Shown here: positions 1 to 45,318 of the stretch, in pieces
Layout: each line of letters begins with the position of its first letter
Position numbering within the stretch: position 1 is the stretch's first letter
Assembly (NCBI GenBank): GCA_963715985.1
Contig: CAVQSP010000017.1
Coordinates: 128,001 to 192,000 of the forward strand
Reading direction: 5' to 3'
Length of the DNA: 64,000 nt
DNA from: an uncultured Thermoleophilia bacterium
Lineage (GTDB): Bacteria > Actinomycetota > Thermoleophilia > UBA2241
Notes under the pieces: model-generated
Told to the model about the DNA's origin: nothing
The model's database searches: none
Seen by the model: only the letters and a program-made list of their open reading frames with translations
Program-made: the position numbers and the translations under genes

Positions 1-632
1 TCCTTCTTGTAGCTGATGCAGCTCAGCCAGTCGTAGAGGATGTGCACCTTGACCCCGGCCTTGAGCCGGTCGAGCAGGATCGCGGTGACCTTGGCCGTGA
101 GCTCGTCCTGCTCCCAGATGAGGTACATCAGATGGATGTAGCGCTCGGCCGTGGCCATCTCGGCGAGCAGGGCGGGGAACTTCTCCGCGCCACTCAGGTA
201 CAGGTCCACGGAGTCCGCCGGCAGCGGGGCGACGTGACCCTCGGTGCGGCCGGTCGCCTCGACGCGCCCCCCCGGCGTGCCCGCGAGCTCGGCGACGGTC
301 GACTCCGTGAACGCCGTGTTGGCGGCGGTCACCGGGAAGAGCGACTTCTCCGCGACCGCCTCCATCTGGGCCATGATGCGCTGTCTGCGCTTCGAGTCGC
401 GGCGGAAGTTGCGGCCGATGAAGAAGTAGGCGATGAGGCCGAGCACGGGGAGGAGCAGGACGACGAACAGCCAGGCGAGGACGGTGCTGGGGTCGCGATC
501 GTCCGTGGCGAGGACGATGACCACGCCGGCGATCGCCAGCAGGAGGAGGAGATCGACCAGCCAGAACCCGAAGCTGAAGAAGTTGTTGGTCACGAAGGAC
601 CCGACCAGCAGGCCGCCTGCACCAGCGATCAC
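1..632 (-). CDS. cls: Cardiolipin synthase (PLD family), N-terminal part; runs off window start
   Basis: Manual minus-strand translation from GTG at 632 (GAGGAG upstream): TM segments, PLDc_N-like 'DDRDPSTVLAWLFVVLLLPVLGLIAYFFIGRN', then 'GAEKFPALLAEMATAERYIHLMYLIWEQDE' and 'GVKVHILYDW'. Similar to the paralog at 52726-54178. Confidence 0.85.
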   Translation of the reverse strand, partial: MIAGAGGLLVGSFVTNNFFSFGFWLVDLLLLLAIAGVVIVLATDDRDPSTVLAWLFVVLLLPVLGLIAYFFIGRNFRRDSKRRQRIMAQMEAVAEKSLFPVTAANTAFTESTVAELAGTPGGRVEATGRTEGHVAPLPADSVDLYLSGAEKFPALLAEMATAERYIHLMYLIWEQDELTAKVTAILLDRLKAGVKVHILYDWLSCISYKK

Positions 633-741
633 TCTGTCTCCTCGTCCGATCGAGAGTAGCGGCGCATTCTCTCACACCCGCCAGGAACGAGGCCGGAGGC
701 GCGCGGCCGGCGCGCCGCTTCACCGCTTCGCTGCTTCGCCA

Positions 742-2061
742 TCACCCCTTGAAACGGAAGGACGCCGCCATGCGGTCCGCCTCGCCGAGCCGCGCCGGGG
801 AAGCGGAGGGCAGCGTGAAGTTGAGCGAGTAGGCGCCGGTCGGAGCCATGAACACGTACTGCACCACGTGGATGCGCCGCGGGCCGTGCGCGATCCCCGC
901 CGGCGACTCGGCCACGATGCGGGCCACGGGGCGGCCGTCCAGCGTTCCGCGGGCGACCGACTCCACCACGGCGCCGTGGTCGCCCATCCGCCGTGCCAGG
1001 TCGTCGGTGCGCCACTCCAGGGTGATGCCCTGGTGCTGGGCGTCCAGCTCCTGGCGCAGCAGGATGAAGTAGGCAGCCTCGTCCAGTGAGGCGGCGCTCA
1101 CGTCCACGGCGAAGAGCAGTGCGGCGACCTGACCGCGGCTCGTGGCGTACATGGCGGTCATCGGGGTGAACCACTCACCGGCCCACGCCGCCCAGTCCGG
1201 GCCGCGACCCTGCAGTGCCGCCGCCGCAGCCGGGCCGGCACTCTCGGGCTCGCCGCCCGTCCAGCCGGGTGGCGCGGCGACGGCCGCCCACGGGGCGTCG
1301 AGCTGGACCCAGCCCGCCGGCGGCGAGGCGGGCGGCAGCTCGTCGCCTGCGGCGGGGAGCGCCGTCGGGTCGAGCCACAGCGTGCACAGCTCCGCGCCGG
1401 CGTGGTCGTGCAGCGAGGCGGCGCGGGTACGGCCGTCCGGCAACGCCGCCGCGTCGAAGTCCCAGCATACGCAGCGCACCGCGCGCGCCAGCACGGCCGC
1501 GTCGAGCGCGTCGTCGGCAGCGGCCGCGAGGGCGAGCACGCGCGCGTCGAAGTCCAGGCTCTGTGAGCGCCAGAGGTCCTCGGAAGGCAGCGGGGCGGCG
1601 GGCGCCGGCTCCGCTGCGGCGGCCGGCTCGGCCGCGGCCACGGGCCCGGCCGCCGCCTCAGCCGCCGGTGCCGGCTCCGCGCTGGGCTCCACCTGAGATG
1701 CGGGCGCAATGACCGTTGCCGCCGGACCCGCCGGCGCCGCCTCTGTCGGCACCGCCGTCTGCAGTGGAGCCGTCGCTGCCACTGGCGCCGCCGCATACGC
1801 CGGCGCCGGCGCTCGCGCGGGCGGCGGCGCCGAGGTCACCACTGGTCCGGCAGCCACAGGAGGCGGGGCCGCTGCGGGCGCCAGCGACTGTACCCACTCG
1901 CGCAGGCCGTCGTAGGCCCACACGAGGTAGCCGCGGCGGTCGTACTCGAGCACGGCCGGCGCGTCGATGAGGCCGTGTCCCTCGAGCGTGAACCTGCCGT
2001 CGTAGTAGGTGATCGTCCTGCCGGCCCAGCCGGTGGACGGCTCGAACGTGGCGATCAGCAT
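742..2061 (-). CDS. Hypothetical protein: small aromatic-rich N-terminal domain, long Pro/Ala linker, possible PsbP-like C-terminal domain
   Basis: 439-aa ORF with GGAGG RBS, starting 25 nt after the prk stop; high-GC codon usage. Confidence 0.7.
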   Translation of the reverse strand: MLIATFEPSTGWAGRTITYYDGRFTLEGHGLIDAPAVLEYDRRGYLVWAYDGLREWVQSLAPAAAPPPVAAGPVVTSAPPPARAPAPAYAAAPVAATAPLQTAVPTEAAPAGPAATVIAPASQVEPSAEPAPAAEAAAGPVAAAEPAAAAEPAPAAPLPSEDLWRSQSLDFDARVLALAAAADDALDAAVLARAVRCVCWDFDAAALPDGRTRAASLHDHAGAELCTLWLDPTALPAAGDELPPASPPAGWVQLDAPWAAVAAPPGWTGGEPESAGPAAAAALQGRGPDWAAWAGEWFTPMTAMYATSRGQVAALLFAVDVSAASLDEAAYFILLRQELDAQHQGITLEWRTDDLARRMGDHGAVVESVARGTLDGRPVARIVAESPAGIAHGPRRIHVVQYVFMAPTGAYSLNFTLPSASPARLGEADRMAASFRFKG

Positions 2062-2086
2062 GACTCGGCCCTCCGCATGCTCTGTG

Positions 2087-2980
2087 TCAGTACTGCCGGT
2101 CGGCGCGTACCGCGTTCTTGCGCTGCTCCATGATCGCGTGCAGCAGCGGCGTCACCACGAGCCGGATGGCCAGCTCCATCTTGCCACCCGGCACCACGAT
2201 GCAGTTGGGGCGCGACATGAACGAGTCGTGGATCATGGTCAGCAGGTACGGGAAGTCGATGCCCTTGGGGTCGCGGAAGCGGATGATGACCAGCGACTCG
2301 TCGAGGGTCGGGATGTCGCGCGTGATGAACGGGTTGGACGTGTCCACCACGGGCACGCGCTGGAAGTTGACGTGCGTCTGCGAGAACTGCGGCGTGATGT
2401 AGTGCACGTAGTCGTGCATGCGCCGCAGGATGGTGTCGGTGACCGCCTCGATGGAGTAGCTCCGCGCCCTGGTGTCGCGGTGGATCTTCTGGATCCACTC
2501 CAGGTTGACGATGGGCACCACGCCGATGAGCAGGTCCACGTAGCGGGCCGCGTTGACGGTCCCGGTCTGCACGCCGCCGTGCAGGCCCTCGTAGAACAGC
2601 AGGTCGGTGTCCGCCGGCAGGTCCTCCCAGGGCGTGAACGTGCCCGACTCGTGGCCCAGGGCGCTCGCCTCCTCGTCGTTGTGCACGTAGAAGCGGCGCT
2701 TGCCGGCGCCCGAGTCGCCGTAGGTACGGAACAGGCGCTCGAGCTCCTCGAAGAGGTTGGCCTCGGGGCCGAAGTGGCTGGGCGGGCGCTCGCCCTTCTC
2801 CTCGGCCGCGGCGATGGCCTGCCGCATGCCCTCGCGGTCATACCTGTGGAAGCTGTCGCCCTCCACGACCGCGGGGTGGATGCTCTCGCGGTGGAAGATG
2901 TGCTCGAAGGAGCGTTTGACGGTGGTGGTGCCGGCGCCGCTGGAGCCGGTGACGGCGACCACGGGGTGCATCGCGGACAT
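2087..2980 (-). CDS. prk: Phosphoribulokinase, proteobacterial (CbbP) type
   Basis: 'HPVVAVTGSSGAGTTT' P-loop, 'EGDSFHRYDR', 'LLFYEGLHG', 'NLEWIQKIHRD', 'NFQRVPVVDTSNPF', 'SRPNCIVVPGGKM'; GGAGGAGG RBS. Confidence 0.97.
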   Translation of the reverse strand: MSAMHPVVAVTGSSGAGTTTVKRSFEHIFHRESIHPAVVEGDSFHRYDREGMRQAIAAAEEKGERPPSHFGPEANLFEELERLFRTYGDSGAGKRRFYVHNDEEASALGHESGTFTPWEDLPADTDLLFYEGLHGGVQTGTVNAARYVDLLIGVVPIVNLEWIQKIHRDTRARSYSIEAVTDTILRRMHDYVHYITPQFSQTHVNFQRVPVVDTSNPFITRDIPTLDESLVIIRFRDPKGIDFPYLLTMIHDSFMSRPNCIVVPGGKMELAIRLVVTPLLHAIMEQRKNAVRADRQY

Positions 2981-3000
2981 CTGCTTCCTCCTCCCGCGGC

Positions 3001-4377
3001 TCAGGCGACGCCGAGCGCGTCGCGCCAGCCCGGGTACAGGGTGTCGGCGTCGGCGGGGAACGACTCGAAGGCGCGCGCCAGCTCGCGGTGGTCGCGCGCC
3101 GCGGCGAGCAGGTCCACGCCGGCGGCCCAGGCCTCGACGGACTGGCGCAGGGAGAGGGCGCCGGCCACGGCGCCGTCGAGGTGGCCGAAGGCGCCGCCGC
3201 CCGAGGTCTGCACCACGTTGGCGTGGCCGAGGTTATCGAAGAAGCCGGGCAGGCGCAGGGCGTTCATGCCTCCGGAGATCATCGCGCTCGTGGCCTTCAT
3301 GCCCAGCCACTCCTGGTGGTAGAAGGGGCCGTCGGCCGAGTCGCGCTCGATCATGTAGGCGATAGCGCGGTCGCCGGGGTCGCCCTCCATCTTGCCGAAG
3401 CCCATGGTGCCGGTGTGGATGCCCGAGGCGCCCTGCAGGCGCGCCATCTTGGAGAGCACGAAGGCGGTGTAGCCGCGCCTGGACTGGGGCGACGTGATGG
3501 CGCCGTGCCCGGCGCGGTGGTAGTGGAGGAAGGTGTCGGGGAAGCGGCGCCGGCAGGTGGTGACGGCGGCCGGACCGCCCACGTAGCCGTCCACGAGGAA
3601 GGCCACGTGATCCTCGAGGCCGGCGAACGCTTCGAGCACGGCCTCGCCGCGGGCCACCATCTCCCAAGGGTCGTCGGCGGTGATGTTGGCCGAGAACAGC
3701 TTGGCATCGCCGGTCTCGTCCTGGGCGCGGCGCATGGCGTCGGCCACCAGCGCCATGGTCTCGCGGTAGGGCGCGAACACCTGGTTGCCCTGCGGCTCGT
3801 CGTTCTTCACGAAGTCGCCGCCCAGCCAGAACTCGTGGCAGGCGCCGGCGAACAGCTCGGGGCGCAGGCCCAGCTTGGGCTTGATGATGGTGCCGACCAC
3901 CATGCCGCCGTCCGTCTCCGGCCGGCCGAGCACGCGCCAGAAGTCGGCGATGTTGCGGCGCGGCCCGTCGAACAGCTCCAGGTAGGCGGGGGGGACGTAG
4001 AAGTCGACCATCTTGGCGTTCTCCACGTCGCCCATGCCCTGGTTGTTGCCGATCGTGAGCGTCAGGAAGGAGACGATCATCGCCTTGCCGTCGGTGATGT
4101 TGCGGTCGAACAGCTCCAGTGGGTAGGCGATCTTCATCACCCCTGCGGTCTCGTCGGCCTCGTAGACGAGGGCGTCCACCGAGCGCGTGAAGTCGTCGGT
4201 GGTGGAGACCTCCACGTTCGTGCCGGTGGAGGACTCCGCGGCGAAGTGCGCCGCCGTGGCGAGGTACTCGTACCCTGCCTTGGGCCTGAAGGTGTAGGCG
4301 CACAGGACGTGGCCGCCCTGGGCGATGAGATCGGCCTCGCTGAGGCTGAGGTCGGTGTAGCGGCTTGACTGATCCAC
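3001..4377 (-). CDS. cbbM: Ribulose-1,5-bisphosphate carboxylase/oxygenase, Form II
   Basis: GTG start at 4377 with GGAGG RBS gives 'MDQSSRY'. Form II motifs '[12 protein letters not shown]', 'GNNQGMGD', '[10 protein letters not shown]', '[14 protein letters not shown]', 'LHYHRAGHG', '[14 protein letters not shown]', 'ISGGMNA' are all intact; 458 aa. Confidence 0.97.
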
Positions 4378-4627
4378 GTTGGCCTCCTGGTCATGACGTG
4401 CCCATCCGCTGATGCGTGCCGGCAGCGGTCTCGCTCCGGGGTCCGGCCATGATGCGGCAGGGCCCCGGGCGATGCAAGTGTTCCCCACCGTGCCGAGTGC
4501 CTACGCCATCAGTGTCGGCGACCGGGTGCGGACGCCGTGGTCCCGGATCCGCCTCGCGCGTTTCCCGCGGCAGCGTCCGGGAACCTCTCCGGATGTACGT
4601 TCCCTGCGCAAGGAAGGCCGGCGGCAC

Positions 4628-4888
4628 ATGTCGGCTGTACTGACAGGACGAAGGATCGCGATCCTGCCCTGGACGGGGTCGAGGAGGCCGAGCTCACCGA
4701 GCCGCACCGTGACCTCGTACCCGACGCTGCGTACCGATCTCGAGAACGCCGGGGCGCGCTGGATCGACGCCGAGGTGCACAACGACAACGGACTGGTGAC
4801 CAGCCGGCGCGTGGACGATCTGCCGGCGTTCACCGCCAGGCTCGTCGAGGAGTTCGGCGAGGGCCTGCATCTGCGCCTCGTGCGCTGA
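4628..4888 (+). pseudogene. DJ-1/PfpI-family protease remnant (internally deleted)
   Basis: N-terminus 'MSAVLTGRRIAIL..DGVEEAELTEP' joins directly, across frames, to C-terminus 'VTSYPTLRTDLENAGARWIDAEVHNDNGLVTSRRVDDLPAF'. The central catalytic ICHG region is missing. Confidence 0.8.
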
Positions 4889-5069
4889 TCCCGACGTCTG
4901 TCGCCATGCCGGCCCTCGTGCCCGCCATGTTCGCGGGCCGGCCACGCCGTGTTCCCTCGCGCGTACGTATCGCATAGAGTCGGGGCAGCCTCGGCGACGG
5001 TGCGAGCGGTGCAGGGATGCACGCTCGGCTCAGGGGCGCCGCGCCGTCAACGACGTGTGGAGGTCGCTC

Positions 5070-7139
5070 ATGGGACGGTCCCTGCTCATCCTCGTCTGCG
5101 TTGTGATGCTGTTGTTGCTCGCGCCGGCCGCCGCCCTGGCGCTCACCTTCGATCAGGCGGTCGACCAGCTCTTCGCGGAGGGCTACCCTCAGCGCCTCGA
5201 GACCACCATCAACGGCTTCAAGTCCGTGCCGCTGGGCTTCCGCTGGACCGGCTCGGACGCCGACGATCAGGCGGCGCAGTTCATCGCCGACGAGATGAAG
5301 GCGGCCGGGCTCGTGGACGTCAAGCTGGAGCCCGTGCCCGTCGACGAGTGGACCATCGAGGACGCCAGCGTCACGGTGGGCGGCAAGGTGATGCCGGCCT
5401 CGAGCTACCCGGGCGTGCCGCCCACGGGGTCCGACGGCGTCACCGGCCAGGTGGTGCGCATCCCCGGCGCCGCCTCCAGGGCCGACTTCGACAAGGCCGG
5501 CGACCTCACCGGCAAGATCGCCCTCATCACCTTCGCCTCCGACTACTGGTGGATGAACTTCCCCTGCGCCGAGGCCGGCCTGCGCGGCGCCAAGGCCGTC
5601 ATCCTGATCTTCGACAAGGCCTACCCCGGGTACGCGGGGGCGCCCAACGCGTTCAACTCCAACGATCCCGGCTACACGTACTCGTCGCCGCCGCTGGTGT
5701 GGCTGCCCAGCGGGTCGGCCACCTGGCTCAAGAAGCAGATGGCCAAGGGGCCGGCCACGGCCACCGTCACGCTGCGGTCCAGCCACACATTCGCCGAGGA
5801 CGGCGGGGTGGGCCACAACGTCGTCGGGTCGCTGCCGGGCAGCAGCAACGACGGCACCAAGATCGTGTTCGGCGGGCATCACGACTCGCACTTCACCGGC
5901 GCCCTGGACAACAGCACGTCCTGCGTCGCGCAGCTCGTCATCGCAAAGGCGATGAAGATGTGTGGCTATCAGCCGGCCAGCACCGTGGTCTTCTTCAACA
6001 CGACCGCCGAGGAGTGGGGCTACACGGACTGCAACTACGACTGGCTGGTCGGCTCCACGTACTCCATCCAGCACACCCATCAAGACTGGCCCGGCACGGT
6101 GAAGGCCATGCTCAACCTGGAGCTCATGGGCTACAAGAACGGGTCGCTCTGGTTCACCGCGACCCGAGACATGAAGCCTTGGGTGCAGGCAGAGATCAAG
6201 GCGCACCCCAAGCTCGTGGGGCCGAAGGGTGGCAAGGTGTTCACGCCCGACCAGGGCTACTGGTTCAGCTACAACGACCAGTGGCCACTCACGGCCGAGG
6301 GCATCCCCAGCACCTGCATGTGGACGCCCGACGAGCACTTCTGGGCGAACTACTACCACACGCAGAACGACAACATCACGAGGCTCGACTGGAGCTTCTT
6401 CAAGAAGAACATCAAGTTCCACCTGGAGCTCGCGCGGAGCATCGACGGCGGCCTGCTGCCGTACCGCCTCTCGGGTGAGGCGGCCGCGCTGGCGGCGGTC
6501 TCGAACAAGGCCGGCTTCGCGGGCGCCGGCGTCGACGCCGGCGTGACCTCCGACTATCTGGCGGCCACCCGGTCCTACGCCGCGGCCGCCAAGACGTACG
6601 ACGCGCGACGCGCCCGTGTCGCCGCCGGCGACACCGCCGCGGCCAACGCCGCCCTGCTGGCGATCGAGAAGGCCGTGAACTCGAACCTCACCGCCCTCGA
6701 CGTGTGGGACAGCACGGTCTACCCGTTCCAGCAGCCCATGGTCGACCTCACCGGCATGCAGGCCACAGTCGCGTTGCTGCGAAAGTCGCCGGCGCAGTAC
6801 GGCAAGGCGTTGGCGGCGCTGGAAGGGGTCAACCTCGCCTGGTACGGCACGCACTTCAGCTACGACGTGTACCACACCAACCTGCTGCAGCGCGTACCGG
6901 GGTACGTGCACGCCAACATGGCCGACCTTGGGCAGATGGCGATGACACTGGACGTCATGCCGGACTACGACCGGATCGTCGCGGCTCGCGCGGCCAAGAA
7001 GGCGCCGACGGAGGCGATCGCCGGTCTGCAGGCCAAGATCGCCGCCGAGCAGGCGGACATCACGAGCCGTCTGCAGGCGCTCACGGGCGTGCTGCGCGAC
7101 GTGACGGCGCAGATCGAGGACGTCACGCCGGAGAAGTAG
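5070..7139 (+). CDS. Secreted M28-family metallopeptidase with PA domain
   Basis: Signal peptide, PA insert 'DLTGKIALI', Zn ligands 'GGHHDS', 'GALDNS', 'AEEWG', 'NLEL', 'YYHTQND'. Confidence 0.85.
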   Translation: MGRSLLILVCVVMLLLLAPAAALALTFDQAVDQLFAEGYPQRLETTINGFKSVPLGFRWTGSDADDQAAQFIADEMKAAGLVDVKLEPVPVDEWTIEDASVTVGGKVMPASSYPGVPPTGSDGVTGQVVRIPGAASRADFDKAGDLTGKIALITFASDYWWMNFPCAEAGLRGAKAVILIFDKAYPGYAGAPNAFNSNDPGYTYSSPPLVWLPSGSATWLKKQMAKGPATATVTLRSSHTFAEDGGVGHNVVGSLPGSSNDGTKIVFGGHHDSHFTGALDNSTSCVAQLVIAKAMKMCGYQPASTVVFFNTTAEEWGYTDCNYDWLVGSTYSIQHTHQDWPGTVKAMLNLELMGYKNGSLWFTATRDMKPWVQAEIKAHPKLVGPKGGKVFTPDQGYWFSYNDQWPLTAEGIPSTCMWTPDEHFWANYYHTQNDNITRLDWSFFKKNIKFHLELARSIDGGLLPYRLSGEAAALAAVSNKAGFAGAGVDAGVTSDYLAATRSYAAAAKTYDARRARVAAGDTAAANAALLAIEKAVNSNLTALDVWDSTVYPFQQPMVDLTGMQATVALLRKSPAQYGKALAALEGVNLAWYGTHFSYDVYHTNLLQRVPGYVHANMADLGQMAMTLDVMPDYDRIVAARAAKKAPTEAIAGLQAKIAAEQADITSRLQALTGVLRDVTAQIEDVTPEK

Positions 7140-7166
7140 CCGGCGTCTCCGTGAGAAACGCCCAGG

Positions 7167-7205
7167 GCGGGCGGCGGGCGGCCCTTCAGGCCGCCCGCCG
7201 CCCGC
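7167..7205 (+). terminator. GC-rich stem-loop after the M28 peptidase gene
   Basis: gcgggcggcgggcggcc-cttca-ggccgcccgccgcccgc, followed by ttcgtcgttct. Confidence 0.6.
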
Positions 7206-7321
7206 TTCGTCGTTCTCTCCCGCGCTTTGCGGAAGCTGAGGGCTCAAGCCCCAAGCCTCCGCGTGCCGAAACAAAGGGGCAGGGACTGTCAGGCGGCCGC
7301 GCGGGCGGCGGGGAGGGAATC

Positions 7322-8683
7322 ATGAGCGTGTCGGGCAAGGGTCTGCGTCGGCTTCTCGTCGGCGCGGCGATCGGGGCGCTTGTGGCGCTTTCGGCCGCCG
7401 TGGCAGGATCCGGCTACCCGGCAGGAGCCAGACTCCTGTCTCAGGATCCGTCGTCGACGGCACTGACCCGGCAGCACGTCATCGACCTCGTCGACCTGAC
7501 GCGTGCGGCTCTGTCCAAGGACACTCCCCGCACCCTCACGGCCATCAACGCCGGCCAGAAGCCCTACGTCGATCCCGCCACGCCGCAGCTGTACGCGTTC
7601 GTCTACGACACCGACGTGACTCTGGTGGCCACGCCCGACCCCGACGTGCGCGGCCAGAACATGAGCGGCCGGCCGGACGCGGTGGGCACGTACTTCCGCG
7701 ACGAGATCGTGGCGGGTGCCCTGGAGTACAAGAGCGGCTGGGTGAGCTATGTGTACAAGGAGCCCGGCCAGGCCGGGCTCTTCGAGAAGGAGACGTACTA
7801 CCGGCTGGCGGACGGTACCGACGGCAAGCAGTACGTGGTGTGCGCCGGGCGCTACCTCGGGCCGTACACGGACACCCCGCTCACGGCGCCCCCGACGCAG
7901 GCCGACGTGCAGGTCTTCGTGAAGAAGGCCGTCGCCTACGCCAGGGAGCACGGCCGGGAGGCCGCCCTCGCGACGTTCACAGCACCCGGCGGCGACTTCC
8001 ATCAGGGGGAGTCGTACATCTACGCCTACGACTACGAGGGCACCGTGATCGCCCACGGCGGTGACCCGACCCTCGTCGGCAGGAACCTCATCGGCATGAC
8101 GGATCCCAACGGGGTGCCGGTCATCAAGGACCTGGTGGGCCTCGCCGAGAACGGCGGCGGCTGGCTCTACTACACGTGGCCCAACCCGGCGCACGGCGGG
8201 GTGCAGGAGCCGAAGCTGGGGTACGTCCTTCCGGTCGACGGCACGTGGTTCCTCGGCTCGGGCACCTATGGACCCGCGGCTCAGCAGCCGGCCACCAAGG
8301 CCGACGTCAAGGCCTTCGTGGATCAGGCGCACGCCTACGCCAAGGCCCACGGCCGGAAGGCGGCGCTGGCTCAGTTCTCAAGGAAGGACGGGGCCTTCTA
8401 CCGCGGCGAGCTCTACCTCTTCGCCTACGACCTGAAGGGCAGGTGTCTCTGCCTGCCGAACCAGCCGGAGCTCGTGGGCACGGACCGCTGGGACTATCGC
8501 GACCGCGACGGCAAGTACGTGGTCCGCGCGTTCGCCGCCGTGGCTCGTCACCCGGGTTCGGGGTGGGTGAAGTACGAGTACGCCAACCCGAGCCAGGGGT
8601 TCGCGATCCAGCACAAGAGCAGCTACGTGCGCGGCATCGCGGGGACGTGGCTGATCGGCGCGGGGACGTACCTTCCCAAGTGA
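7322..8683 (+). CDS. Secreted protein with three tandem single Cache (sCache_2-like) domains
   Basis: Signal peptide, then three repeats of 'Y(A/I/L)FxYD..G...GxN/D....D..G.....GWxxY.Y/W.NP....K..Y'. No TM or kinase output domain. Confidence 0.85.
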   Translation: MSVSGKGLRRLLVGAAIGALVALSAAVAGSGYPAGARLLSQDPSSTALTRQHVIDLVDLTRAALSKDTPRTLTAINAGQKPYVDPATPQLYAFVYDTDVTLVATPDPDVRGQNMSGRPDAVGTYFRDEIVAGALEYKSGWVSYVYKEPGQAGLFEKETYYRLADGTDGKQYVVCAGRYLGPYTDTPLTAPPTQADVQVFVKKAVAYAREHGREAALATFTAPGGDFHQGESYIYAYDYEGTVIAHGGDPTLVGRNLIGMTDPNGVPVIKDLVGLAENGGGWLYYTWPNPAHGGVQEPKLGYVLPVDGTWFLGSGTYGPAAQQPATKADVKAFVDQAHAYAKAHGRKAALAQFSRKDGAFYRGELYLFAYDLKGRCLCLPNQPELVGTDRWDYRDRDGKYVVRAFAAVARHPGSGWVKYEYANPSQGFAIQHKSSYVRGIAGTWLIGAGTYLPK

Positions 8684-8773
8684 GGGGCATCCGCTCCCGC
8701 GGCTGACTCGCGACCCCGGGCACAGTGCTCCGGGCCGAGCAGTCCCAGGCAGTCGCAGGAGTCTGCAGCGCCC

Positions 8774-14984: not shown

Positions 14985-15776
14985 CTAGCCGATGTCGCGG
15001 CGGCCGAAGGCGGCCAGCGCGATGCCCAGACACACGAGGCTGGTCACGGCGAACACGGCGGCGTGCGACGCCGGGAGGCCGTCCGAGAGCGGCGCCACCC
15101 CGTAGTAGTGGAACAGCGAGAGCGGCTCGAGGCGCCGGAGCGCGCCGGCGTCCGGCGCGAGGATGTTGACGAGGTACATGGCGCCGGCGAGGCCGCCGGC
15201 CACAGCGGCCGCCGTCCCCCGCCGGGCGCCGGCGGCGGCCACCACGAACGCGAGCGAGCCGAAGGCCAGGGCGAGCAGGCCGAGCGACACACAGGCCTCC
15301 AGCAGCCGCTCCGCCCCGATGTGCATGTCGAAGATCGGTGCCGACACCGCCAGTGTGGCCCACAGCGCCGCCGCCAGCAGCGCCACGCCCGTCACGAGGA
15401 CGGCGTACTTCTCGAGTGCCACCTTCGTGCGCGAGACCGGCTGGGCGAGGAGCAGGTCGAGCGTCCCGACTTCTTCCTCGCCGGCCAGGCTGCGCGCGCC
15501 GGCCCCCACCGCGTACACGAGGAACATGATCGGCGCCATGATGGAGAGCAGCTTGGTGTCCAGCCAGCCGGCGGCGGAGGTCATGTCGCTGCCGATGAAG
15601 GCGTCCCGGAACGCCTGCGGGAGCTTGTCGGCGATGTCCTGCATGGCCGCCATGCTCTGTGCCACGGTCGGGTAGAAGGCGGCGATGAGCAGCGCGTACG
15701 CGGCCACCGCCACGAGCCATGCGAGCAGGGCTCGCCACTGGTCGCGCAGGCCTTTGCTGAAGATGCTACCGAGCAT
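14985..15776 (-). CDS. ABC-2 type transporter permease
   Basis: Six TM segments; 'AGEEEVGTLDLLLAQPVSR', 'LSLFHYY'. Confidence 0.85.
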   Translation of the reverse strand: MLGSIFSKGLRDQWRALLAWLVAVAAYALLIAAFYPTVAQSMAAMQDIADKLPQAFRDAFIGSDMTSAAGWLDTKLLSIMAPIMFLVYAVGAGARSLAGEEEVGTLDLLLAQPVSRTKVALEKYAVLVTGVALLAAALWATLAVSAPIFDMHIGAERLLEACVSLGLLALAFGSLAFVVAAAGARRGTAAAVAGGLAGAMYLVNILAPDAGALRRLEPLSLFHYYGVAPLSDGLPASHAAVFAVTSLVCLGIALAAFGRRDIG

Positions 15777-16753
15777 CGGCGCCCTCTCCCTGCTGCTCCT
15801 CGCCGTAGTACGACATGAAGAGGTCGTCGAGGTCCGGCTCCGTGCTGCGCAGGGCCGTGACGTCGTAGCAGAGCCAGCAGCTTGACGACGGGGTCCATGA
15901 CGCCGGCCGCGCGGCAGCGCACCGTGCCGCCTTCGACCGACACGTGCGAGACGCCGGGGAGGGCGGCGAGCGCCTCGGCGACCGCGCCGCTCTCCCCGCG
16001 GCCCACCACCACCTCGACCTCGTGCACCGCGCGTGTTCCCAGCGCGCTCATGTCCTCGACCGCGATCAGCCGTCCGCCGCGCACGAAGGCTGCCCGCCCG
16101 CACACCTCCTGCACCTCGGGCAGCAGATGCGACGAGAGGAGCGCGGTCTGGCCGGCTTCGCGGGCCTCGCGCAGGAGGGCGTAGAAGGCGTGCTGCATGA
16201 GCGGGTCGAGGCCGGCCGTGGGTTCGTCGAGGATGAGCAGCGGAGGGCGGTGCATGAACGCCTGGATGAGGGCGACCTTGCGCTTGTTGCCCGTGGAGAG
16301 GCCGCTCACGCGGCGTGAGAGGTCGGCGTCGAAGCGCCGCGCCAGCTCGTGCACCCAGGCCCAGTCGACGCCTCCGCGCAGGGCGGCGAAGAACCGCAGG
16401 TTCTCCTCGCCGGTGAGCCTCGCATACAGCGCCAGCTCGCCCGGCACGTAGCCGATCTGCCGCCGCAGCTCGCGGCCGTCCCTGCGGGTGTCGAGCCCGA
16501 GGACCCGGGCGCCGCCGCGTGTGGGCCGCAGCAGGTCCAGCAGCAGGCGGAGCGTGGTGGTCTTGCCGGCGCCATTGGGCCCGAGGAAGCCGAAGATCTC
16601 ACCGCTGCCGACCTCGAGGTCGAGGTCGACGATGCCTGCCACCTTGCCGTAGAACTTGGTGAGGCCGGCGGTCCGGATCGCGGCGGCCGTGGCTCCGGCA
16701 TCCACCGACCGGTGTGCCCCGCTGCGCCCCTGCTCGTCCTGCTCGGCCGGCAC
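15766..16753 (-). CDS. ABC transporter ATP-binding protein (frameshift near 15875; start uncertain)
   Basis: Walker A 'GPNGAGKTT', 'LSTGNKRKV', 'ILDEPTAGLDP'; C-terminal 'EPDLDDLFMSYY' in the shifted frame. Confidence 0.85.
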
Positions 16754-24191: not shown

Positions 24192-24998
24192 CTACTCGAG
24201 CACGACGAGCGCGTCCGCCGTCAGCTCGTACTCCTCGTCCTCGTTGAGGTCGTGGACGCGGATGCGCTCAAGTTCGCCCTCGCCGAGCAGCTCGAGCGGC
24301 TGCGCCTCGGTGAGCAGCTTGACGTCCGACAGTCGCAGCGCCGAACGCACGGCGCTGCTCACGCTGGGTTCCTTGCCGGTCGTCATGAGGACGACGCGCC
24401 CCGTGTGGTCGGTGAGGTCGATGGCCGTCTGCGCTGCGCGGTCGCCGGTGTCGAGGACGACGACGCGCTGGCCGGCCAGGGCGGAGAGGTCGTCGAGCGC
24501 CTTGTACACGCCCGCACCCTCGTAGTCGGCGAGGTTGCCGATCTCGACCTCCACCACTTCGGCCGGGCGCGGGTGGCAGCTCTTCTCGACCGGCGTCGTG
24601 GTGGCGTCCTCCGGCTTCACGCCCTCGCGCCAGTTCTTGATGGCCTCGTGCAGGGCGTCGGCCGCCAGGTTGCTGCAGTGCATCTTGATGGGCGGCAGGC
24701 CGTCGAGCGCGTCGGCCACGTCGCCGCGGCTCACCTTGAGGGCCTCGTCGAGCTTCATGCCGATCACGAGCTCCGTGACCATGCTCGAGGTGGCCACCGC
24801 CGACCCGCAGCCGAAGGTCTGGAACTTGATGTCCTCGATGCGGTCGTCGTCGGTGACCTTGATGTAGATGTCCATCATGTCGCCGCACACGGGGTTGCCG
24901 ACGCGGCCGACCGCGACGTTGGGGCCCTCCAGGGTGCCGACGTTGCGCGGGTTGCGGAAGTGCTCGAGGGTCTTCTCGCTGTACTGGGTCGATTTCAT
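24192..24998 (-). CDS. iscU: Fe-S scaffold IscU/NifU-N fused to a degenerate thioredoxin-reductase-like NAD(P)-binding domain
   Basis: 'YSEKTLEHFRNPRNVG', 'GNPVCGD', 'TFGCGSA', 'LPPIKMHCSNLA'; about 110-aa C-terminal Rossmann-like extension. Confidence 0.9.
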   Translation of the reverse strand: MKSTQYSEKTLEHFRNPRNVGTLEGPNVAVGRVGNPVCGDMMDIYIKVTDDDRIEDIKFQTFGCGSAVATSSMVTELVIGMKLDEALKVSRGDVADALDGLPPIKMHCSNLAADALHEAIKNWREGVKPEDATTTPVEKSCHPRPAEVVEVEIGNLADYEGAGVYKALDDLSALAGQRVVVLDTGDRAAQTAIDLTDHTGRVVLMTTGKEPSVSSAVRSALRLSDVKLLTEAQPLELLGEGELERIRVHDLNEDEEYELTADALVVLE

Positions 24999-25041
24999 GA
25001 CTGGTGCCTCTCGCTGGTGATGGTCCGTGCGTCGCGCCTGG

Positions 25042-26229
25042 TCAGGCCGGCGTCTTCGCCTTGTAGAGCGGGCTGAGCGTGCGCAGCCGCGTGATGACGC
25101 CGGGCAGGGCGGCCATGATGCGGTCCACGTCCTCCGCCTCGCTGAAGCGCCCGAACGTGAACTCCAGGGAGCCGTGCGCCTCCTCGTGGAGCAGCCCGCA
25201 GGAGATGAGCGTGTGCGAGGGCTCCAGCGTCTTGGAGCTGCAGGCCGAGCCCGTGGCCGCGGCGACGCCCTCGTCGCGCAGCGAGAGGATCATGGCCTCG
25301 CCCTCCACGCCGTCGAAGCGGAAGTGGGCGTTGTTGGGCAGGCGTCCGCCGGGGCGGTCGAGCGGGGCGCCGTTGAGGTGCGAGTCGGGGATCTCGGCGA
25401 GCACGCGCGCCACGAGGTCGTCGCGGATGCCGCGGATGCGCTCCACTTCGGCCGGCATCTCCGCCCTCATGATGTCGGCGGCGGCGGCCATGCCGGCGAT
25501 GGCCGCGAGGTCCTCGGTGCCCGAGCGCAGGCCGCGCTCCTGCCCGCCGCCCAGCAGCACCGGCGCCACCTGGACGCCCGCACGCACGTAGAGAGCGCCG
25601 ACCCCGCGCGGCCCGTAGATCTCGTTGGACGAGAGGCTCATCAGACTCACCGGGACGCTCTTCGTGTCGATCGGCAGCAGGCCCTCGGCGGCCACGGCGT
25701 CCGTGTGCAGAGCCACGCCGGTGCCGGCGAGCATCTCGGCGATCTCGGCGATGGGCTGCACGGTGCCGATCTCGTTGCTCGCCCAGCCCACGCTCACCAG
25801 GATCGTCTCGTCGGTGATGCGGGCGCGCAGCTTCTTGAGCGACACGCGCCCGTACAGGTCGATGGGCGCGCGCGTCACCTTGAACCCGTTCTTCTCCAGG
25901 TACTTGGCGATGTTGAGCACCGAGATGTGCTCGGCCTCGGTGATGACGACGTGATTGCCCTTGCGGCGGTTGCGCTGCGCGTAGCCGATGAGCGCGATGT
26001 TGCTGGCCTCCGTGGCGCCGGAGGTGAAGACGATCTCGCGCGGCTCGGCGCCGAAGAGCGCGGCGACCCGGCCGCGCATCTCCTCGAGCGCCGCCGTCGC
26101 CTCGTCGCCCACGGCGTGCAGCGAGGCGGCATTGCCGAAGGCGGTGCCGCCGAAGTACGGCAGCATGGCCTCGACGACGCGAGGGTCGACCGGCCGGGAG
26201 GACTGGTAGTCGGCGTAGACGACGGCCAT
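25042..26229 (-). CDS. iscS: IscS/NifS-like protein lacking the PLP Schiff-base lysine (A. fulgidus IscS type)
   Basis: 'FTSGATE', 'SNEIGTVQP', 'GGGQERGLRSGT' and 'TGSACSS' are present, but SxHK is replaced by 'SSNEIYGP' and DAxQ by 'DAVA'. Confidence 0.9.
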   Translation of the reverse strand: MAVVYADYQSSRPVDPRVVEAMLPYFGGTAFGNAASLHAVGDEATAALEEMRGRVAALFGAEPREIVFTSGATEASNIALIGYAQRNRRKGNHVVITEAEHISVLNIAKYLEKNGFKVTRAPIDLYGRVSLKKLRARITDETILVSVGWASNEIGTVQPIAEIAEMLAGTGVALHTDAVAAEGLLPIDTKSVPVSLMSLSSNEIYGPRGVGALYVRAGVQVAPVLLGGGQERGLRSGTEDLAAIAGMAAAADIMRAEMPAEVERIRGIRDDLVARVLAEIPDSHLNGAPLDRPGGRLPNNAHFRFDGVEGEAMILSLRDEGVAAATGSACSSKTLEPSHTLISCGLLHEEAHGSLEFTFGRFSEAEDVDRIMAALPGVITRLRTLSPLYKAKTPA

Positions 26230-26591
26230 CAGAAGTACATCGTGGCGCCTGCGTCGAGCGCGAGGTCGTTGAGCGTGGCGGCGCCCACGATCTTCACCCC
26301 GTCGATGAGCTCCACGGACTCCCAGCCGAGCATCTGCTTGGAGGCCTCGCACACGTACACGGTGATGCCCATGTCCAGGGTCTTCTGGAGCATCTCGGCG
26401 ACGCTGGGGAAGCTGCCGAGCTGCATCTTCTCCGCCTCGCCGGGCTTGAGCACGGTGAGTCCCATGCCCAGGTAGTACACGGCCGCGTCGAGACCCATGG
26501 CCTTGGCGCTCTGCGCGAGCACGAGCGGAGAGTACTGGCGCTCGGGCGCGTTGCTGGTCTGCACGTACAGGATGGAGTTCTCGTTCTTCAT
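26229..26591 (-). CDS. DsrE/DsrF-like sulfur relay protein
   Basis: 120 aa; 'GITVYVCEAS' conserved Cys, 'IVGAATL'; TGATG coupling to iscS. Confidence 0.8.
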   Translation of the reverse strand: MKNENSILYVQTSNAPERQYSPLVLAQSAKAMGLDAAVYYLGMGLTVLKPGEAEKMQLGSFPSVAEMLQKTLDMGITVYVCEASKQMLGWESVELIDGVKIVGAATLNDLALDAGATMYF

Positions 26592-26607
26592 GATCGTCGG
26601 CTCCTCG

Positions 26608-26850
26608 TCACTTGAGTCTGCGGATGCGGATGCGCAGCTGGTCGCCGTCATGGTCTACGTCCACCACTTCGTGGCCGGCGCGCTTGGCGAAGCGCGTGAG
26701 GTCCTCCTCCGCCGCCGGGTCGTCGGCGAACACCTCGAGCACCTCACCGATCTCGATGGCGTCGATGGCCTCCCGCGTCTGGAACAGCGGCTCGGGGCAG
26801 TACAGCCCGATGCAATCGAGTGTGGATGCTGGGGTCGTCTGGTCGCTCAT
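26608..26850 (-). CDS. tusA: TusA-family sulfur carrier protein
   Basis: 'LDCIGLYCPEP', 'GEVLEVFADDPAAEEDL'; GGAGGAG RBS. Confidence 0.9.
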   Translation of the reverse strand: MSDQTTPASTLDCIGLYCPEPLFQTREAIDAIEIGEVLEVFADDPAAEEDLTRFAKRAGHEVVDVDHDGDQLRIRIRRLK

Positions 26851-26984
26851 GCGTGCTCCTCCGGGGACGGTCATACCCAACCACTGCGGTCGGTATTCCC
26901 GCCCGAGGCTGAGTCGATGCATGGGCACGGGCGGACGGGCCCGCCGAGGGCGGGCCCTGCGTCACGCCGAGGGCGGGCCCGCGG

Positions 26985-29428: not shown

Positions 29429-29586
29429 GACGGCCCCACGGCGCCCGACAACGCTGCGCCCATTACTGTCATTCTCGTAGACGACGGCTCCATGCTAGAC
29501 TTGGACCTTTCCCCAGTTCTGTGGGTGGCAACGCTCATAACGTGCCTTGGCGTCGCCACCCCTGCTCCTACCCAGGCGAGGTTGAG

Positions 29587-31077
29587 ATGAGCGAGAGCCA
29601 GACAAGACTCCCGGCTGCACCCGGCCCCGACAGCGCGTGCGCCATGCAGCGCATGGACGACGGCAGCCCGTCGCTGCGCGAGCTCCTGGGCAAGCAGGAG
29701 GGTGAGGGTCTCTTCGACCTCGCGCGGACCCGAGAGGGGAGCTGCGCCTGCACGCTCTGCGGCGTCTGCGCCAAGCGCTGCCCGGTCAACGCCATCCACG
29801 TGGAGCGCCACGGCAAGGTCCGCGCGGGCGTCGGCGCGACCCTCAGCATCGGCTCCATCAAGGTGGACGAGGCGCGCTGCATCGGCTGCGACCACTGCGT
29901 GGAGTCGTGCAAGTTCGACGCCCTGGTGCCCAACCCCGCCTACGAGCGGCGGCGCGCCTTCTTCCAGACGCTGGCGACCAAGGAGCAAGGCCTCGCCTCC
30001 GGGCACGGCCTGTGCAGCGGCTGCGGCGCCTCCGTGGTCGTGAACATGGTGCTCTCCGCGGTCGAGGGTCCCTACGTGGCGTCGGCCTCCACCGGCTGCC
30101 TCGAGGTCTCCACCACCCGCTACCCCTACACCGCCTGGAAGGGCAGCTTCATCCACACCCTGTTCGAGAACGCGGCCGCCACGCTCTCCGGCGTGGAGAC
30201 GGCGTTCCGCGCCTTCAAGAAGAAGGGCCTCATCGACGAGGACGTCAAGTTCATCGCCTTCGGCGGCGACGGCGGCACCTACGACATCGGCCTGCAGGCG
30301 CTCTCCGGCGCCATGGAGCGCGGCCACGACATGCTCTACGTGTGCTACGACAACGGCGCCTACATGAACACCGGCTTCCAGCGCTCCAGCGCCACGCCCA
30401 TCGGCGCCTGGACCTCCACGAGCCCCGTGGGCAAGGAGGGCATGGGCAAGCTGCAGCACAGCAAGAACCTCACGGAGATCATGGTGGCCCACCGCCTGCC
30501 GTACGTGGCCCAGGCCTCACCGCACGACCCCATGGACCTGCTGCGCAAAGCGCGCAAGGCCATCCACACCCCCGGTCCCACCTTCCTCAACGTCCTCTCG
30601 CCCTGCCCGCGCGGCTGGCGCACCGAGAACGACGAGACCATCGAGATGGCCCGCGAGGCCACGGAGACGTGTTTCTGGCCGCTCTTCGAGGTGGAGAACG
30701 GCCACTACCACCTCACCTACCGGCCCAAGCGGAAGGAGCCCCTCACCAAGTGGCTCGAGAAGCAGGGCCGCTTCGACCACCTGGCTCGCGTGGAGGAGCA
30801 CGAACTGCTCATCGCCATGCAGCAGTGGGTGGACGACGAGTGGGACCTGCTGCTGCGCAAGTCGGGCGAGGTCTCGGAGTGCGACTGGGGAGTGTGCAAG
30901 ATCGCGCCGGAGGATCTGGAGATGCACCCGGTGCACATGCACGTGGAGTCGCTGGGCGAGCCGCTGACCGCCTCCATGACCGAGACGGCCCTCGAGGTCA
31001 CCTCCCACCTGGAGCACGAGCGCTGGCCGGCGCTCTCCTCGGCGATGAGCTGGGGCGGCTTCGACGAAGACGAGTGA
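29587..31077 (+). CDS. porB: 2[4Fe-4S] ferredoxin fused to pyruvate/2-oxoacid:ferredoxin oxidoreductase beta (TPP-binding) subunit
   Basis: 'CTLCGVCAKRCP', 'CIGCDHCVESC'; then 'GHGLCSGCG', 'TGCLEV', 'GGDGGTYDIG..YDNGAYMNTG', 'SPCPRGW'. Confidence 0.88.
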   Translation: MSESQTRLPAAPGPDSACAMQRMDDGSPSLRELLGKQEGEGLFDLARTREGSCACTLCGVCAKRCPVNAIHVERHGKVRAGVGATLSIGSIKVDEARCIGCDHCVESCKFDALVPNPAYERRRAFFQTLATKEQGLASGHGLCSGCGASVVVNMVLSAVEGPYVASASTGCLEVSTTRYPYTAWKGSFIHTLFENAAATLSGVETAFRAFKKKGLIDEDVKFIAFGGDGGTYDIGLQALSGAMERGHDMLYVCYDNGAYMNTGFQRSSATPIGAWTSTSPVGKEGMGKLQHSKNLTEIMVAHRLPYVAQASPHDPMDLLRKARKAIHTPGPTFLNVLSPCPRGWRTENDETIEMAREATETCFWPLFEVENGHYHLTYRPKRKEPLTKWLEKQGRFDHLARVEEHELLIAMQQWVDDEWDLLLRKSGEVSECDWGVCKIAPEDLEMHPVHMHVESLGEPLTASMTETALEVTSHLEHERWPALSSAMSWGGFDEDE

Positions 31078-41224: not shown

Positions 41225-42196
41225 ATGGACATCTCGATCGAAGCGAACGGTCTGGTGAAGACCTACCGCGGCGACGTGCGCGCCCTCGACGGGGTGAGCC
41301 TCGTCGCCGAGACCGGCACCGTGTTCGGCCTCCTGGGCCCCAACGGTGCCGGCAAATCCACAGCTGTGAAGATCCTGACCACGCTGTCGCTCCCGGATTC
41401 GGGCGAGGCGCACGTGGCCGGGTACGACGTCGTGCGCCAGGCGGCCAAGGTGCGGCTCGCCATCGGCTGCGTGGCGCAGAAGTCCGGGCTCGACCTGGCG
41501 GCCACCGGCCGCGAGAACCTGATCCTCCAGGGTCGTGTGTACGGGATGCGCGGCCGCGAGCTCAAGAGCCGCGCTCAGGAGCTGCTCGACCGTTTCGGTC
41601 TTGCCGAGTCGGCCGACCGCACGGTGCGCACGTACTCCGGCGGCATGCAGCGCAAGCTGGACGTCGCCGTCGGCCTGATGCACCGCCCGCAGGTGCTCTT
41701 CCTCGACGAGCCGACCACCGGCCTCGACCCGGAGGCGCGCGTGGACATGTGGTCCGAGATCGCGCGCCTGGCCGGCGGTGAGGGTCTCACGATCCTCATG
41801 ACGACCCACTACCTGGAGGAGGCCGACAGCCTCGCCCGGCGACTCGCCATCGTCGACCACGGCAAGGTCGTGGCCGAGGGCACGCCGGACGAGCTCAAGG
41901 GCGAGTTGCGCGGTGACGCCATCGTCGTGGAGCTCGACCAGGCGCCCCAGGACGGCGAGGTCGCGCGCGCCCTCGCGGGCGTGGCCGACCTGCGCGACGT
42001 GAGCGTGGAGGCCCGCACGCTGCGCGCGCGGGCCGACAGCGGCGCCCGCATGGTGCCCAGTGTCCTCGCCGCGCTCGAGAGTGCCGGCGTGGGCGTGGCC
42101 GCCGTCACCGTGGCGCGGCCGTCTCTCGACGATGTGTACCTTCGTCACGCCGGCAAGGCGTTCTGCGAAGACGACGGGGAGGTGAAGAAGCCATGA
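41225..42196 (+). CDS. DrrA-family ABC ATP-binding protein
   Basis: 'GPNGAGKST', 'YSGGMQRKLD', 'FLDEPTTGLDP', 'TTHYLEEAD', 'RPSLDDVYL'. Confidence 0.9.
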   Translation: MDISIEANGLVKTYRGDVRALDGVSLVAETGTVFGLLGPNGAGKSTAVKILTTLSLPDSGEAHVAGYDVVRQAAKVRLAIGCVAQKSGLDLAATGRENLILQGRVYGMRGRELKSRAQELLDRFGLAESADRTVRTYSGGMQRKLDVAVGLMHRPQVLFLDEPTTGLDPEARVDMWSEIARLAGGEGLTILMTTHYLEEADSLARRLAIVDHGKVVAEGTPDELKGELRGDAIVVELDQAPQDGEVARALAGVADLRDVSVEARTLRARADSGARMVPSVLAALESAGVGVAAVTVARPSLDDVYLRHAGKAFCEDDGEVKKP

Positions 42197-42972
42197 CCCA
42201 CGTGCTCGCCGATACCTACTTCATGACCCAGCGGCACTTCCGCAACCTGCTGAGGCAGCCGGCCTGGATCTTCATCTCGCTGGTGCAGCCCGTCGTCTGG
42301 CTGCTCCTCTACGGCGCTCTGTTCCGCAAGATCGTCGAGATCCCCGGCTTCGGCGCCGGGAGCTACATCGACTTCCTCACGCCGGGCATCGTCGTGATGA
42401 CCTGTCTCTTCAGCGCGGGTTGGAGCGGCATGGACCTCATCGAGGACATCGACCGCGGCGTGATCGACCGCTTCCTCGTGAGCCCGGCCAGCCGCAGCTC
42501 ACTCATCGCCGGGCAGGCTCGTCCAGGGCGCCCTGGTCGGGGATCATCCAGTCGGTCATCATCGTCGTGCTCGGCCTGATCGTGGGCGCCGAGTATCCCG
42601 GTGGGCGTCGCCGGCATCGCCGCGCTCACCATCTGCGCGGTGCTCCTCGGCACGGGCGTCGGCGCCCTGAGCAACGCCATCGGCGTGCTGTCGCGACGCG
42701 TCGAGACCATGGTGGCGGTCAGCAACTTCGTGCTGCTGCCGCTCACGTTCCTGAGCTCGGTGTTCATGGCCCGGGCGCTCATGCCGGGCTGGATGCAGAG
42801 CGTCGCGACCTACAACCCCGTGGAGTGGGCGGTCAACGCGGGCCGCGAGGGCCTCGCCTCGAGCCCAGACTGGAGCGTCGTGCTGAGCCGGATGGGCTAC
42901 CTGGCGCTCTTCACGGTCGTGTGCACGTGGCTCGCAACGCGCGCCTTCCGCGTGTACCAGCGTTCGATCTGA
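42193..42972 (+). CDS. DrrB-family ABC-2 permease (frameshifts at about 42515-42600)
   Basis: 'LVQPVVWLLLYG', 'YIDFLTPGI', 'MPGWMQSVATYNPV'. Confidence 0.85.
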
Positions 42973-45314: not shown

Positions 45315-45318
45315 CAGC

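Follow-up and report, generated by a model that had tools for sequence, protein, structure and literature searches.

Form II RuBisCO is usually taken as a proteobacterial (and dinoflagellate) marker, and the taxa behind cbbM amplicons are assigned accordingly. What, then, would a Form II gene, cbbM, do directly beside a gene for phosphoribulokinase (PRK; cbbP or prk) in what appears to be an anaerobic actinobacterium, and could two Calvin cycle enzymes work there as a unit? The question is raised by a 64-kb stretch of DNA (positions 128,001 to 192,000 of contig CAVQSP010000017.1; hereafter the window), in which an initial annotation had described the pair as a minimal, horizontally acquired cassette in a lineage not known for it. 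We propose, with a probability of roughly 0.6, that the pair is a functional two-gene CO2-fixing module, a judgement of enzyme activity and physiological role drawn from sequence comparison. What the module is, that it is intact, and that it has an old proteobacterial origin appear close to certain.

The cbbM product matches both RuBisCO domains in Pfam (RuBisCO_large, 402 bits; RuBisCO_large_N, 123 bits) and lies above the cut-off of the NCBIfam equivalog model for Form II enzymes (NF010002, 832.8 bits vs 489), whereas it reaches 232 bits on the Form III model TIGR03326 (cut-off 497) and at most 52 bits on models of RuBisCO-like proteins (RLPs). It aligns without a gap to residues 1-457 of the Form II RuBisCO of Rhodospirillum rubrum (7vwx/9rub; 801 bits), and because the alignment is ungapped, R. 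rubrum numbering can be transferred to it. Every residue of what we take to be the catalytic list (E48, T53, N54, N111, K166, K168, K191, D193, E194, H287, R288, H321, K329, S368, G369-370, and G393-394) is present in the window protein and invariant in all 12 members of the clade formed by the window and 11 related metagenome-assembled genomes (MAGs; see below). The position of the GTG start codon is likewise aligned across the 12 loci. No RbcS domain was found with Pfam among the 68 open reading frames (ORFs; 58 + 10) of the window or the 106 ORFs that flank the pair in the 11 relatives, where up to 10 kb per side was covered and less at contig ends. The enzyme thus resembles R. rubrum CbbM (7vwx, 9rub, 5rub) in its catalytic residues and in having no small subunit; its setting differs, in that the host is Gram-positive and apparently a non-phototrophic anaerobe, there is no divergent cbbR, and PRK follows directly. 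On these comparisons the cbbM product is a canonical Form II RuBisCO, not a Form III or IV enzyme. The annotated intact Form II RuBisCO with all catalytic motifs is borne out by the equivalog score and by every residue checked, and the coordinates given for the pair, 2087-4377, are exact.

The second gene encodes a PRK of the proteobacterial type (class I). Its product matches Pfam PF00485 (224 bits) and exceeds the cut-off of the equivalog model NF011997 (494 bits vs 362), whereas the cyanobacterial-type model NF005655 yields 59 bits against a cut-off of 236; similarly, the class I PRK of Rhodobacter sphaeroides (1a7j) aligns over its full length (residues 1-288) with 386 bits, and a cyanobacterial PRK with only 46 bits. 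The P-loop and the other residues that we presume to be catalytic or to bind ribulose-5-phosphate (Ru5P) (D42, H45, R49, E131, K165, R168, D169, and R173) all occur in the window protein and do not vary among the 12 clade members. Both the enzyme type and its distance from cbbM, read here as 20 nt, agree with the initial annotation, and the corresponding gap is 3-41 nt in the 11 related loci.

The nature of this partner bears on a reading in which no net carbon is fixed, the pair instead serving pentose or nucleoside salvage through ribulose-1,5-bisphosphate (RuBP), much like the archaeal pentose-bisphosphate pathway, or an RLP-type reaction. Form II/III and Form III enzymes hold such a role in anaerobes, as is also cited in the literature, and the lack of other linked cycle genes would suit it. 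PRK, however, makes RuBP from Ru5P, and the enzymes expected of salvage, AMP phosphorylase and ribose-1,5-bisphosphate isomerase, have no recognizable domain in the 68 window and 106 flanking ORFs. Given also the Form II, Form III, and RLP scores above and the invariance of all carboxylation residues, we consider such a role improbable.

The pair extends well beyond this genome. A RuBisCO scan of species-representative genomes yielded 163 confirmed relatives, of which 80 loci were kept. Eleven are actinobacterial MAGs (labeled Thermoleophilia in eight cases, Actinomycetes in two, and Actinomycetota in one) with 85-90% RbcL and 81-85% PRK identity to the window; the remaining 69 (68 Pseudomonadota and one Myxococcota) share 71-78% RbcL identity. 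cbbM is followed by PRK in all 11 actinobacterial loci but within 300 nt in only four of the 69 others. No species-representative locus carries an identical RuBisCO, which means that the genome of the window is not itself among the species representatives. In the protein database, about 46 further clusters are 81-91% identical to the window protein, the organism names on them being "Thermoleophilia bacterium" (twice) and "Actinobacteria bacterium" (once), and the named matches below 80% identity are Proteobacteria. The existence of the module is thereby upheld, and its standing as an oddity of one genome is not: the trait is lineage-wide and recurs in 11 GTDB species representatives. The top-scoring proteins also include, at 60-69% identity, long RuBisCOs with several copies per chain from the dinoflagellates Effrenium, Prorocentrum, and Polarella (P0002, P0003, P0048, and P0059); they represent the known Form II polyprotein of that group and are irrelevant to the window.

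Homology among the 12 loci runs from about 130 nt before the cbbM start, at a promoter-like block, to the PRK stop codon, limits that define the conserved unit as a promoter-like element, a leader, cbbM, and cbbP (Table 1). The promoter-like element is the sole conserved block upstream of cbbM (alignment A1, 12 loci), and we infer its function, including transcription from it, from this conservation; the AGGAGG that precedes the start codon is invariant in all 12. Outside the unit the flanking genes differ among the 12 genomes. Conserved synteny around the pair was considered and rejected, since only loci L007 and L010 share flanks and only the window and L013 share an N-terminal domain in an adjacent gene.

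The host is probably an uncultured actinobacterium of the class Thermoleophilia. Window proteins outside the cassette match actinobacterial flanks only, despite seven times more proteobacterial DNA in the comparison; in L010 the matches are a TMEM175-like channel (68%) and a Haem_bd protein (59%). The sole organism-named match among the 120 best relatives of the window's glycerol kinase is a Thermoleophilia MAG (69%). The cluster-level phylum for this protein (most commonly Pseudomonadota) was discarded as unsuited to taxonomy. The close homologues of the neighboring M28 peptidase (60-85% identity) add nothing to the placement. The window contains SfLAP and DUF7144 families, which we take to be typical of Actinomycetota. 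The actinobacterial context that had been proposed therefore holds on the labels of the closest relatives, the window-gene matches, and the glycerol kinase. One RuBisCO relative (P0005, 89%) and one glycerol kinase relative (P0319, 68%) may share a single 213,835-bp contig of a related genome.

How did a proteobacterial pair reach such a host? In a quick tree of 81 RbcL sequences the window groups with the 11 MAGs in a single clade (SH-aLRT 99), part of a well-supported group to which 17 Pseudomonadota also belong, and in a more careful 37-row tree the support for this clade is 100/100. The 65-row PRK tree recovers the same 12 sequences as a clade (100), with the Rhodocyclales MAG L018 as sister (96) followed by the gammaproteobacterial L060 (93). 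The roots of these trees are midpoints, so nesting within Proteobacteria here means one well-supported actinobacterial tip group among many proteobacterial branches. L018 is 76% identical to the window in PRK and 78% in RbcL, and its operon reads cbbM-cbbP-transketolase…PGK-pyruvate kinase, whereas that of L060 reads cbbM-cbbP-class II aldolase. Both have the order cbbM then cbbP in common with the window pair and continue past cbbP, unlike the actinobacterial unit, which ends at the PRK stop and has a host-like GC content at third codon positions (GC3). Most simply, an actinobacterial ancestor would have received both leading genes of a proteobacterial cbbM-cbbP-tkt… operon together. The two trees, each with fully supported actinobacterial clades among proteobacterial sequences, agree on the horizontal origin first suggested for the cassette.

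Composition and selection speak to the age of this transfer. In codon-usage fit to the window, cbbM and PRK rank 42nd and 46th of 48 genes, at the well-adapted end, beside rubrerythrin and an Nfn-like subunit, and their GC3 values of 0.97 and 0.98 compare with 0.88 in L018 and 0.87-0.88 in L060; the predicted codon amelioration is thus plain. Within the clade the median dN/dS is 0.14 for cbbM (maximum 0.19) and 0.17 for PRK (maximum 0.27), over 66 pairs each. Host-like codon usage together with dN/dS near 0.15 indicates that the transfer is old and that the genes have been kept under selection. A recently acquired island or mobile element was rejected: the window, with a flat GC content of about 70%, contains no integrase or transposase (Pfam) and no tRNA, its flanking repeats are only GC-rich, chance-level ones, and there is no compositional break.

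These data also bear on whether proteobacterial DNA was simply misjoined or misbinned with actinobacterial sequence, as a chimeric contig or MAG contamination. In favor of this, the nearest relatives outside Actinomycetota are without exception proteobacterial, and several other window genes are split or frameshifted, which means that the assembly has errors. Yet 12 assemblies, made independently and submitted by different depositors, share the pair; in relatives it is embedded in contigs of 185 kb, 454 kb, 947 kb, and 1.25 Mb, and the window RuBisCO and its neighbor lie together on a contig of 309,345 bp. The 12 sequences make up a separate clade, with a divergence of 10-25% from every proteobacterial sequence. 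The GC3 and codon usage of the window pair match the surrounding genes and not L018 or L060, just as the non-cassette genes match actinobacterial flanks only. Chimerism is unlikely, and in our estimate extremely so.

The rest of the canonical cbb operon is not found beside the pair. The window, as had been noted for cbbR, cbbQ/O, fbp, tkt, fba, and the small-subunit gene, has no LysR/CbbR, CbbQ/O, RbcS, FBPase, transketolase, or aldolase domain in any of its 68 ORFs (Pfam), and the 106 flanking ORFs of the 11 relatives include no other Calvin cycle enzyme, CbbR, or activase; linked FBPase/SBPase, transketolase, aldolase, GAPDH, PGK, CbbQ/O, and CbbX are absent from the window and the relatives' flanks alike. 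Such regulators as the window does contain are MarR-type and lie more than 12 kb from the pair. Two parts of the canonical operon, RuBisCO and PRK, are thus present, and the adjacent CbbR and linked cycle genes are not. Such a gene content would have Ru5P supplied by housekeeping enzymes and 3-phosphoglycerate returned to central metabolism. In the mechanism we propose, PRK would phosphorylate Ru5P taken from the pentose-phosphate pathway of the host, RuBisCO would carboxylate the resulting RuBP to two molecules of 3-phosphoglycerate, and the pair would do so with no linked dedicated regulator, activase, or cycle enzyme. Its history would be one of old acquisition followed by adaptation to host codon usage, purifying selection, and reshuffling of the genomic neighborhood.

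The lifestyle of the host suggests what such a pair might be for. Anaerobe-type genes in the window include rubrerythrin (equivalog, 299 bits), an NfnAB-like pair, clostridial-type NifS/NifU, and a B12-radical SAM enzyme, and these, with a PorB-like subunit (Table 1), confirm the anaerobe markers first noted. The flanks of the relatives add pyruvate:ferredoxin oxidoreductase (PFOR), aldehyde:ferredoxin oxidoreductase, iron-containing alcohol dehydrogenase (Fe-ADH), HdrD-like and electron-transfer flavoprotein (ETF) components, MtmB, NapC/NirT, and B12-radical SAM proteins, which suggest a lineage that is anaerobic and depends on ferredoxin. The window and the relatives' flanks, a small sample, show no terminal oxidase. 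Judging by this gene content, the host appears to live without oxygen on a ferredoxin-based metabolism.

For such a host, we give about an even chance to a role as a facultative CO2 electron sink, or in mixotrophic re-assimilation of CO2, in anoxic, CO2-rich soil or sediment. We favor this role because Form II RuBisCO is a low-specificity enzyme, the background is anaerobic and ferredoxin-based, and no lithotrophy genes are linked. The closest functional analogy is an engineered one, in which PRK and Form II RuBisCO placed in fermenting yeast or Escherichia coli operate as two genes on the host's pentose-phosphate enzymes with CO2 as an electron acceptor; two studies indicate that two genes suffice for PRK-RuBisCO CO2 use in heterotrophs (PMC7895386; PMC3766054, in yeast). 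The engineered pair is synthetic, whereas the window pair is natural and conserved across a lineage, and physiological equivalence between the two would be an extrapolation.

Alternatively, the pair may complete a full Calvin-Benson-Bassham cycle and support true chemolithoautotrophy (on H2, formate, or CO, for example), with the other enzymes being housekeeping ones encoded elsewhere. Both diagnostic enzymes are intact and under purifying selection, and their codon usage, like that of the best-adapted window genes, fits high expression. In L010 the pair has genes for nickel regulation and transport nearby (NikR, CbiMQO), which would suit a hydrogenase or carbon monoxide dehydrogenase and give a weak hint in the same direction, and a Calvin cycle based on Form I enzymes has been predicted for other Thermoleophilia (PMC6741124). 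Nevertheless, none of the 12 genomes (window or flanks) has a cycle gene, a regulator, or a gene for energy harvesting linked to the pair, although such genes are linked in the nearest proteobacterial operons, and the flanking genes that can be seen reflect a fermentative, ferredoxin-based metabolism. We regard full autotrophy as somewhat unlikely, and think that an electron-sink or mixotrophic role is likelier than obligate autotrophy.

Several observations weigh against the proposal of an old, singly acquired, functional module in an actinobacterial electron sink. First, the class assignment rests on depositors' MAG labels, and two of the 11 read Actinomycetes. Second, the sister of the actinobacterial clade in the RbcL tree is a Magnetospirillum MAG (94/83, not starred) and not L018 as in the PRK tree, so the donor is only loosely defined; an RbcL clade of the actinobacterial sequences with L018 was not rejected (p-AU 0.27). 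Third, the differing flanks could reflect repeated transfer within the lineage instead of one old acquisition followed by rearrangement. Fourth, of the residues that we take to form the NADH allosteric site of PRK (R31, R234, and R257), R234 and R257 are invariant in the clade and the window has R31, but residue 31 is A, R, or S across the clade. Fifth, a strict sigma-70 consensus scan of 600-5200 returned no promoter and did not call the conserved upstream element. Finally, a full autotrophic cycle is as compatible with the 64 kb of window data as a shunt.

How new is the system? A 2026 survey (PMC12999727) records Form II RbcL for three cultured Actinomycetota, which its authors attribute to transfer from Pseudomonadota. 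In its supplementary table, Propionicicella superfundia and Propionicimonas paludicola fall in the same column as Profundibacter, given as Form II in the text, and autotrophy is entered as ND for both. These Form II hosts belong to the class Actinomycetes (Propionibacteriales), unlike the probable Thermoleophilia here. None of these species occurs by name among the 120 best RuBisCO relatives (at least 76% identity, full length) or the 80 loci, which places them outside the 81-91% clade. Within Thermoleophilia, a type I RuBisCO is described in Gaiella occulta and Solirubrobacter soli (PMC6741124) and Form IF RuBisCO in Gaiellales (bioRxiv 10.64898/2026.03.18.712719), in each case with a predicted Calvin cycle and unproven fixation, and actinobacterial RuBisCO is mainly Form IE according to PMC13454268 and PMC12999727. 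These Form I enzymes of the same class are of the L8S8 type and come from aerobes, whereas the window has a small-subunit-free Form II enzyme in an anaerobe-like genome. We found no paper on Form II RuBisCO or cbbM in Thermoleophilia, and none on the pair itself when Actinobacteriota and Gaiellales were included, in a search that left subscription journals and bioRxiv supplements outside its reach. The description of a lineage not known for the pair consequently stands for Thermoleophilia but fails for Actinomycetota as a phylum, given the three cultured members in PMC12999727, which lowers the novelty; and as a dozen related genomes share the pair, it is real and only moderately new. What is described here is a new host lineage for a known type of system, not a new type.

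As enzymes the two are unremarkable, and transfer of RuBisCO genes is frequent; the gain is ecological and evolutionary and not mechanistic. The conservation of the pair in at least 12 actinobacterial species-level genomes, alongside about 46 related clusters of proteins, shows that Gram-positive anaerobes account for part of the cbbM pool in the environment. We advance only tentatively the broader proposition that widespread uncultured, anaerobic, fermentative Thermoleophilia use a regulator-free PRK and Form II pair as a CO2-reducing electron sink. If it is true, non-phototrophic Gram-positive heterotrophs add RuBisCO-based dark CO2 fixation in anoxic habitats such as soils and lake sediments, and environmental cbbM surveys in which every Form II read is assigned to Proteobacteria misattribute part of their signal. 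The pair likewise offers a natural test of the minimum set of genes needed to graft RuBisCO-based CO2 fixation onto a heterotrophic metabolism, a question that metabolic engineers ask with the same two genes.

Table 1. Features of the cbbM-cbbP locus and of other parts of the window (positions within the 64-kb window).
Feature	Coordinates	Strand	Details
Promoter-like element	4449..4477	-	TTGCAT (4477-4472), 17-nt spacer, CATCAT (4454-4449)
Presumed 5' leader	4378..4448	-	ends in AGGAGG ahead of GTG
cbbM, Form II RuBisCO large subunit	3001..4377	-	458 aa; GTG start; AGGAGG 8 nt upstream
Spacer cbbM-PRK	2981..3000	-	exactly 20 nt; carries ribosome-binding site GGAGGAGG
cbbP/prk, proteobacterial-type (class I) phosphoribulokinase	2087..2980	-	297 aa
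ORF downstream of PRK	742..2061	-	439 aa; Ala/Pro-rich middle; starts 25 nt past PRK stop
DJ-1/PfpI remnant	4628-4888	+	in ORF 4412-4888; profile positions 114-165 of 165, E 3.9e-11
PorB-like 2-oxoacid:ferredoxin oxidoreductase beta subunit	29431-31077	+	N-terminal 2x[4Fe-4S] fusion; 348 bits, below cut-off of 405
Cluster of TusA, DsrE-like, NifS-type, and NifU-type genes	24192-26928	-	NifS-type cysteine desulfurase; NifU-type scaffold
SulP permease	43737-45359	-	
SulP permease	49906-50700	-	also among the broken-looking genes
Broken-looking gene	42193-42972	+	
Broken-looking gene	58830-60133	+	
Broken-looking gene	14985-16753	-	

Upstream of cbbM, an RNA element was considered and rejected: Rfam gave no match in the whole window at gathering thresholds and none in 4300-5100 at E<=1, and RNAalifold returned no consensus structure for the 12 cbbM leaders. 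By eye, most of the 12 loci show a short GC hairpin (CCCG…CGGG type) just past the -10-like box (A1 columns ~225-245), which is absent or altered in the window, L014, and L016. A hidden regulator in the upstream ORFs (4412-5022) was likewise rejected, as only the C-terminal remnant of a DJ-1/PfpI protein is present there. This remnant, situated in the 677 nt that separate cbbM from the divergent M28 peptidase, seems to consist of a PfpI-like N-terminus followed by a large internal loss, which suggests local decay or rearrangement beside the pair.

Other parts of the window and the relatives' flanks hold further observations. The PorB-like gene has an unusually low GC3 (0.78), and no PorA or PorG was recognized adjacent to it. 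The cluster of TusA, DsrE-like, NifS-type, and NifU-type genes looks like a sulfur-relay and Fe-S assembly unit, and its NifU-type protein carries an extra C-terminal stretch resembling thioredoxin reductase. In the relatives, L009 has a fragment of a monomethylamine methyltransferase gene (MtmB; 5046-5705, minus strand), L015 a set of FAD-oxidase, CCG, ETF, and HdrD-like genes (1771-8698), L010 an aldehyde:ferredoxin oxidoreductase with Fe-ADH (1-3857), and L008 a large single-chain PFOR (1-3009). SulP permeases, some members of which transport bicarbonate, occur near the pair in L011 (7683-9461, minus strand) and L012 (15119-16360, plus strand) as well as in the window; that of L011 lies upstream of cbbM with only a small YGGT-family gene intervening.

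Among the broken-looking window genes, an ABC-2 permease is garbled in its middle part and contains an in-frame stop, a Na+/H+ exchanger is divided between two reading frames, a SulP transporter is without its N-terminal half, and an ABC ATPase/permease pair overlaps by about 500 nt. Such genes reflect either indel errors in the assembly or pseudogenes; cbbM and prk are intact.

Downstream of PRK, no terminator-like site was found before the next ORF, which is possibly co-transcribed with the pair. By the homology limits seen in the 12 loci, this ORF lies outside the conserved module. It matches no family in Pfam or NCBIfam, and a protein-atlas search gave only leads below 0.9. Over the first ~60-70 residues its product shares 57-65% identity with the beginning of a pair-adjacent gene in one of the 11 related loci, L013 (3647-4183, minus strand), which is on the opposite strand and has a different, membrane-like C-terminus. 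The N-terminus of the ORF may therefore be a small uncharacterized domain that recurs beside the module.

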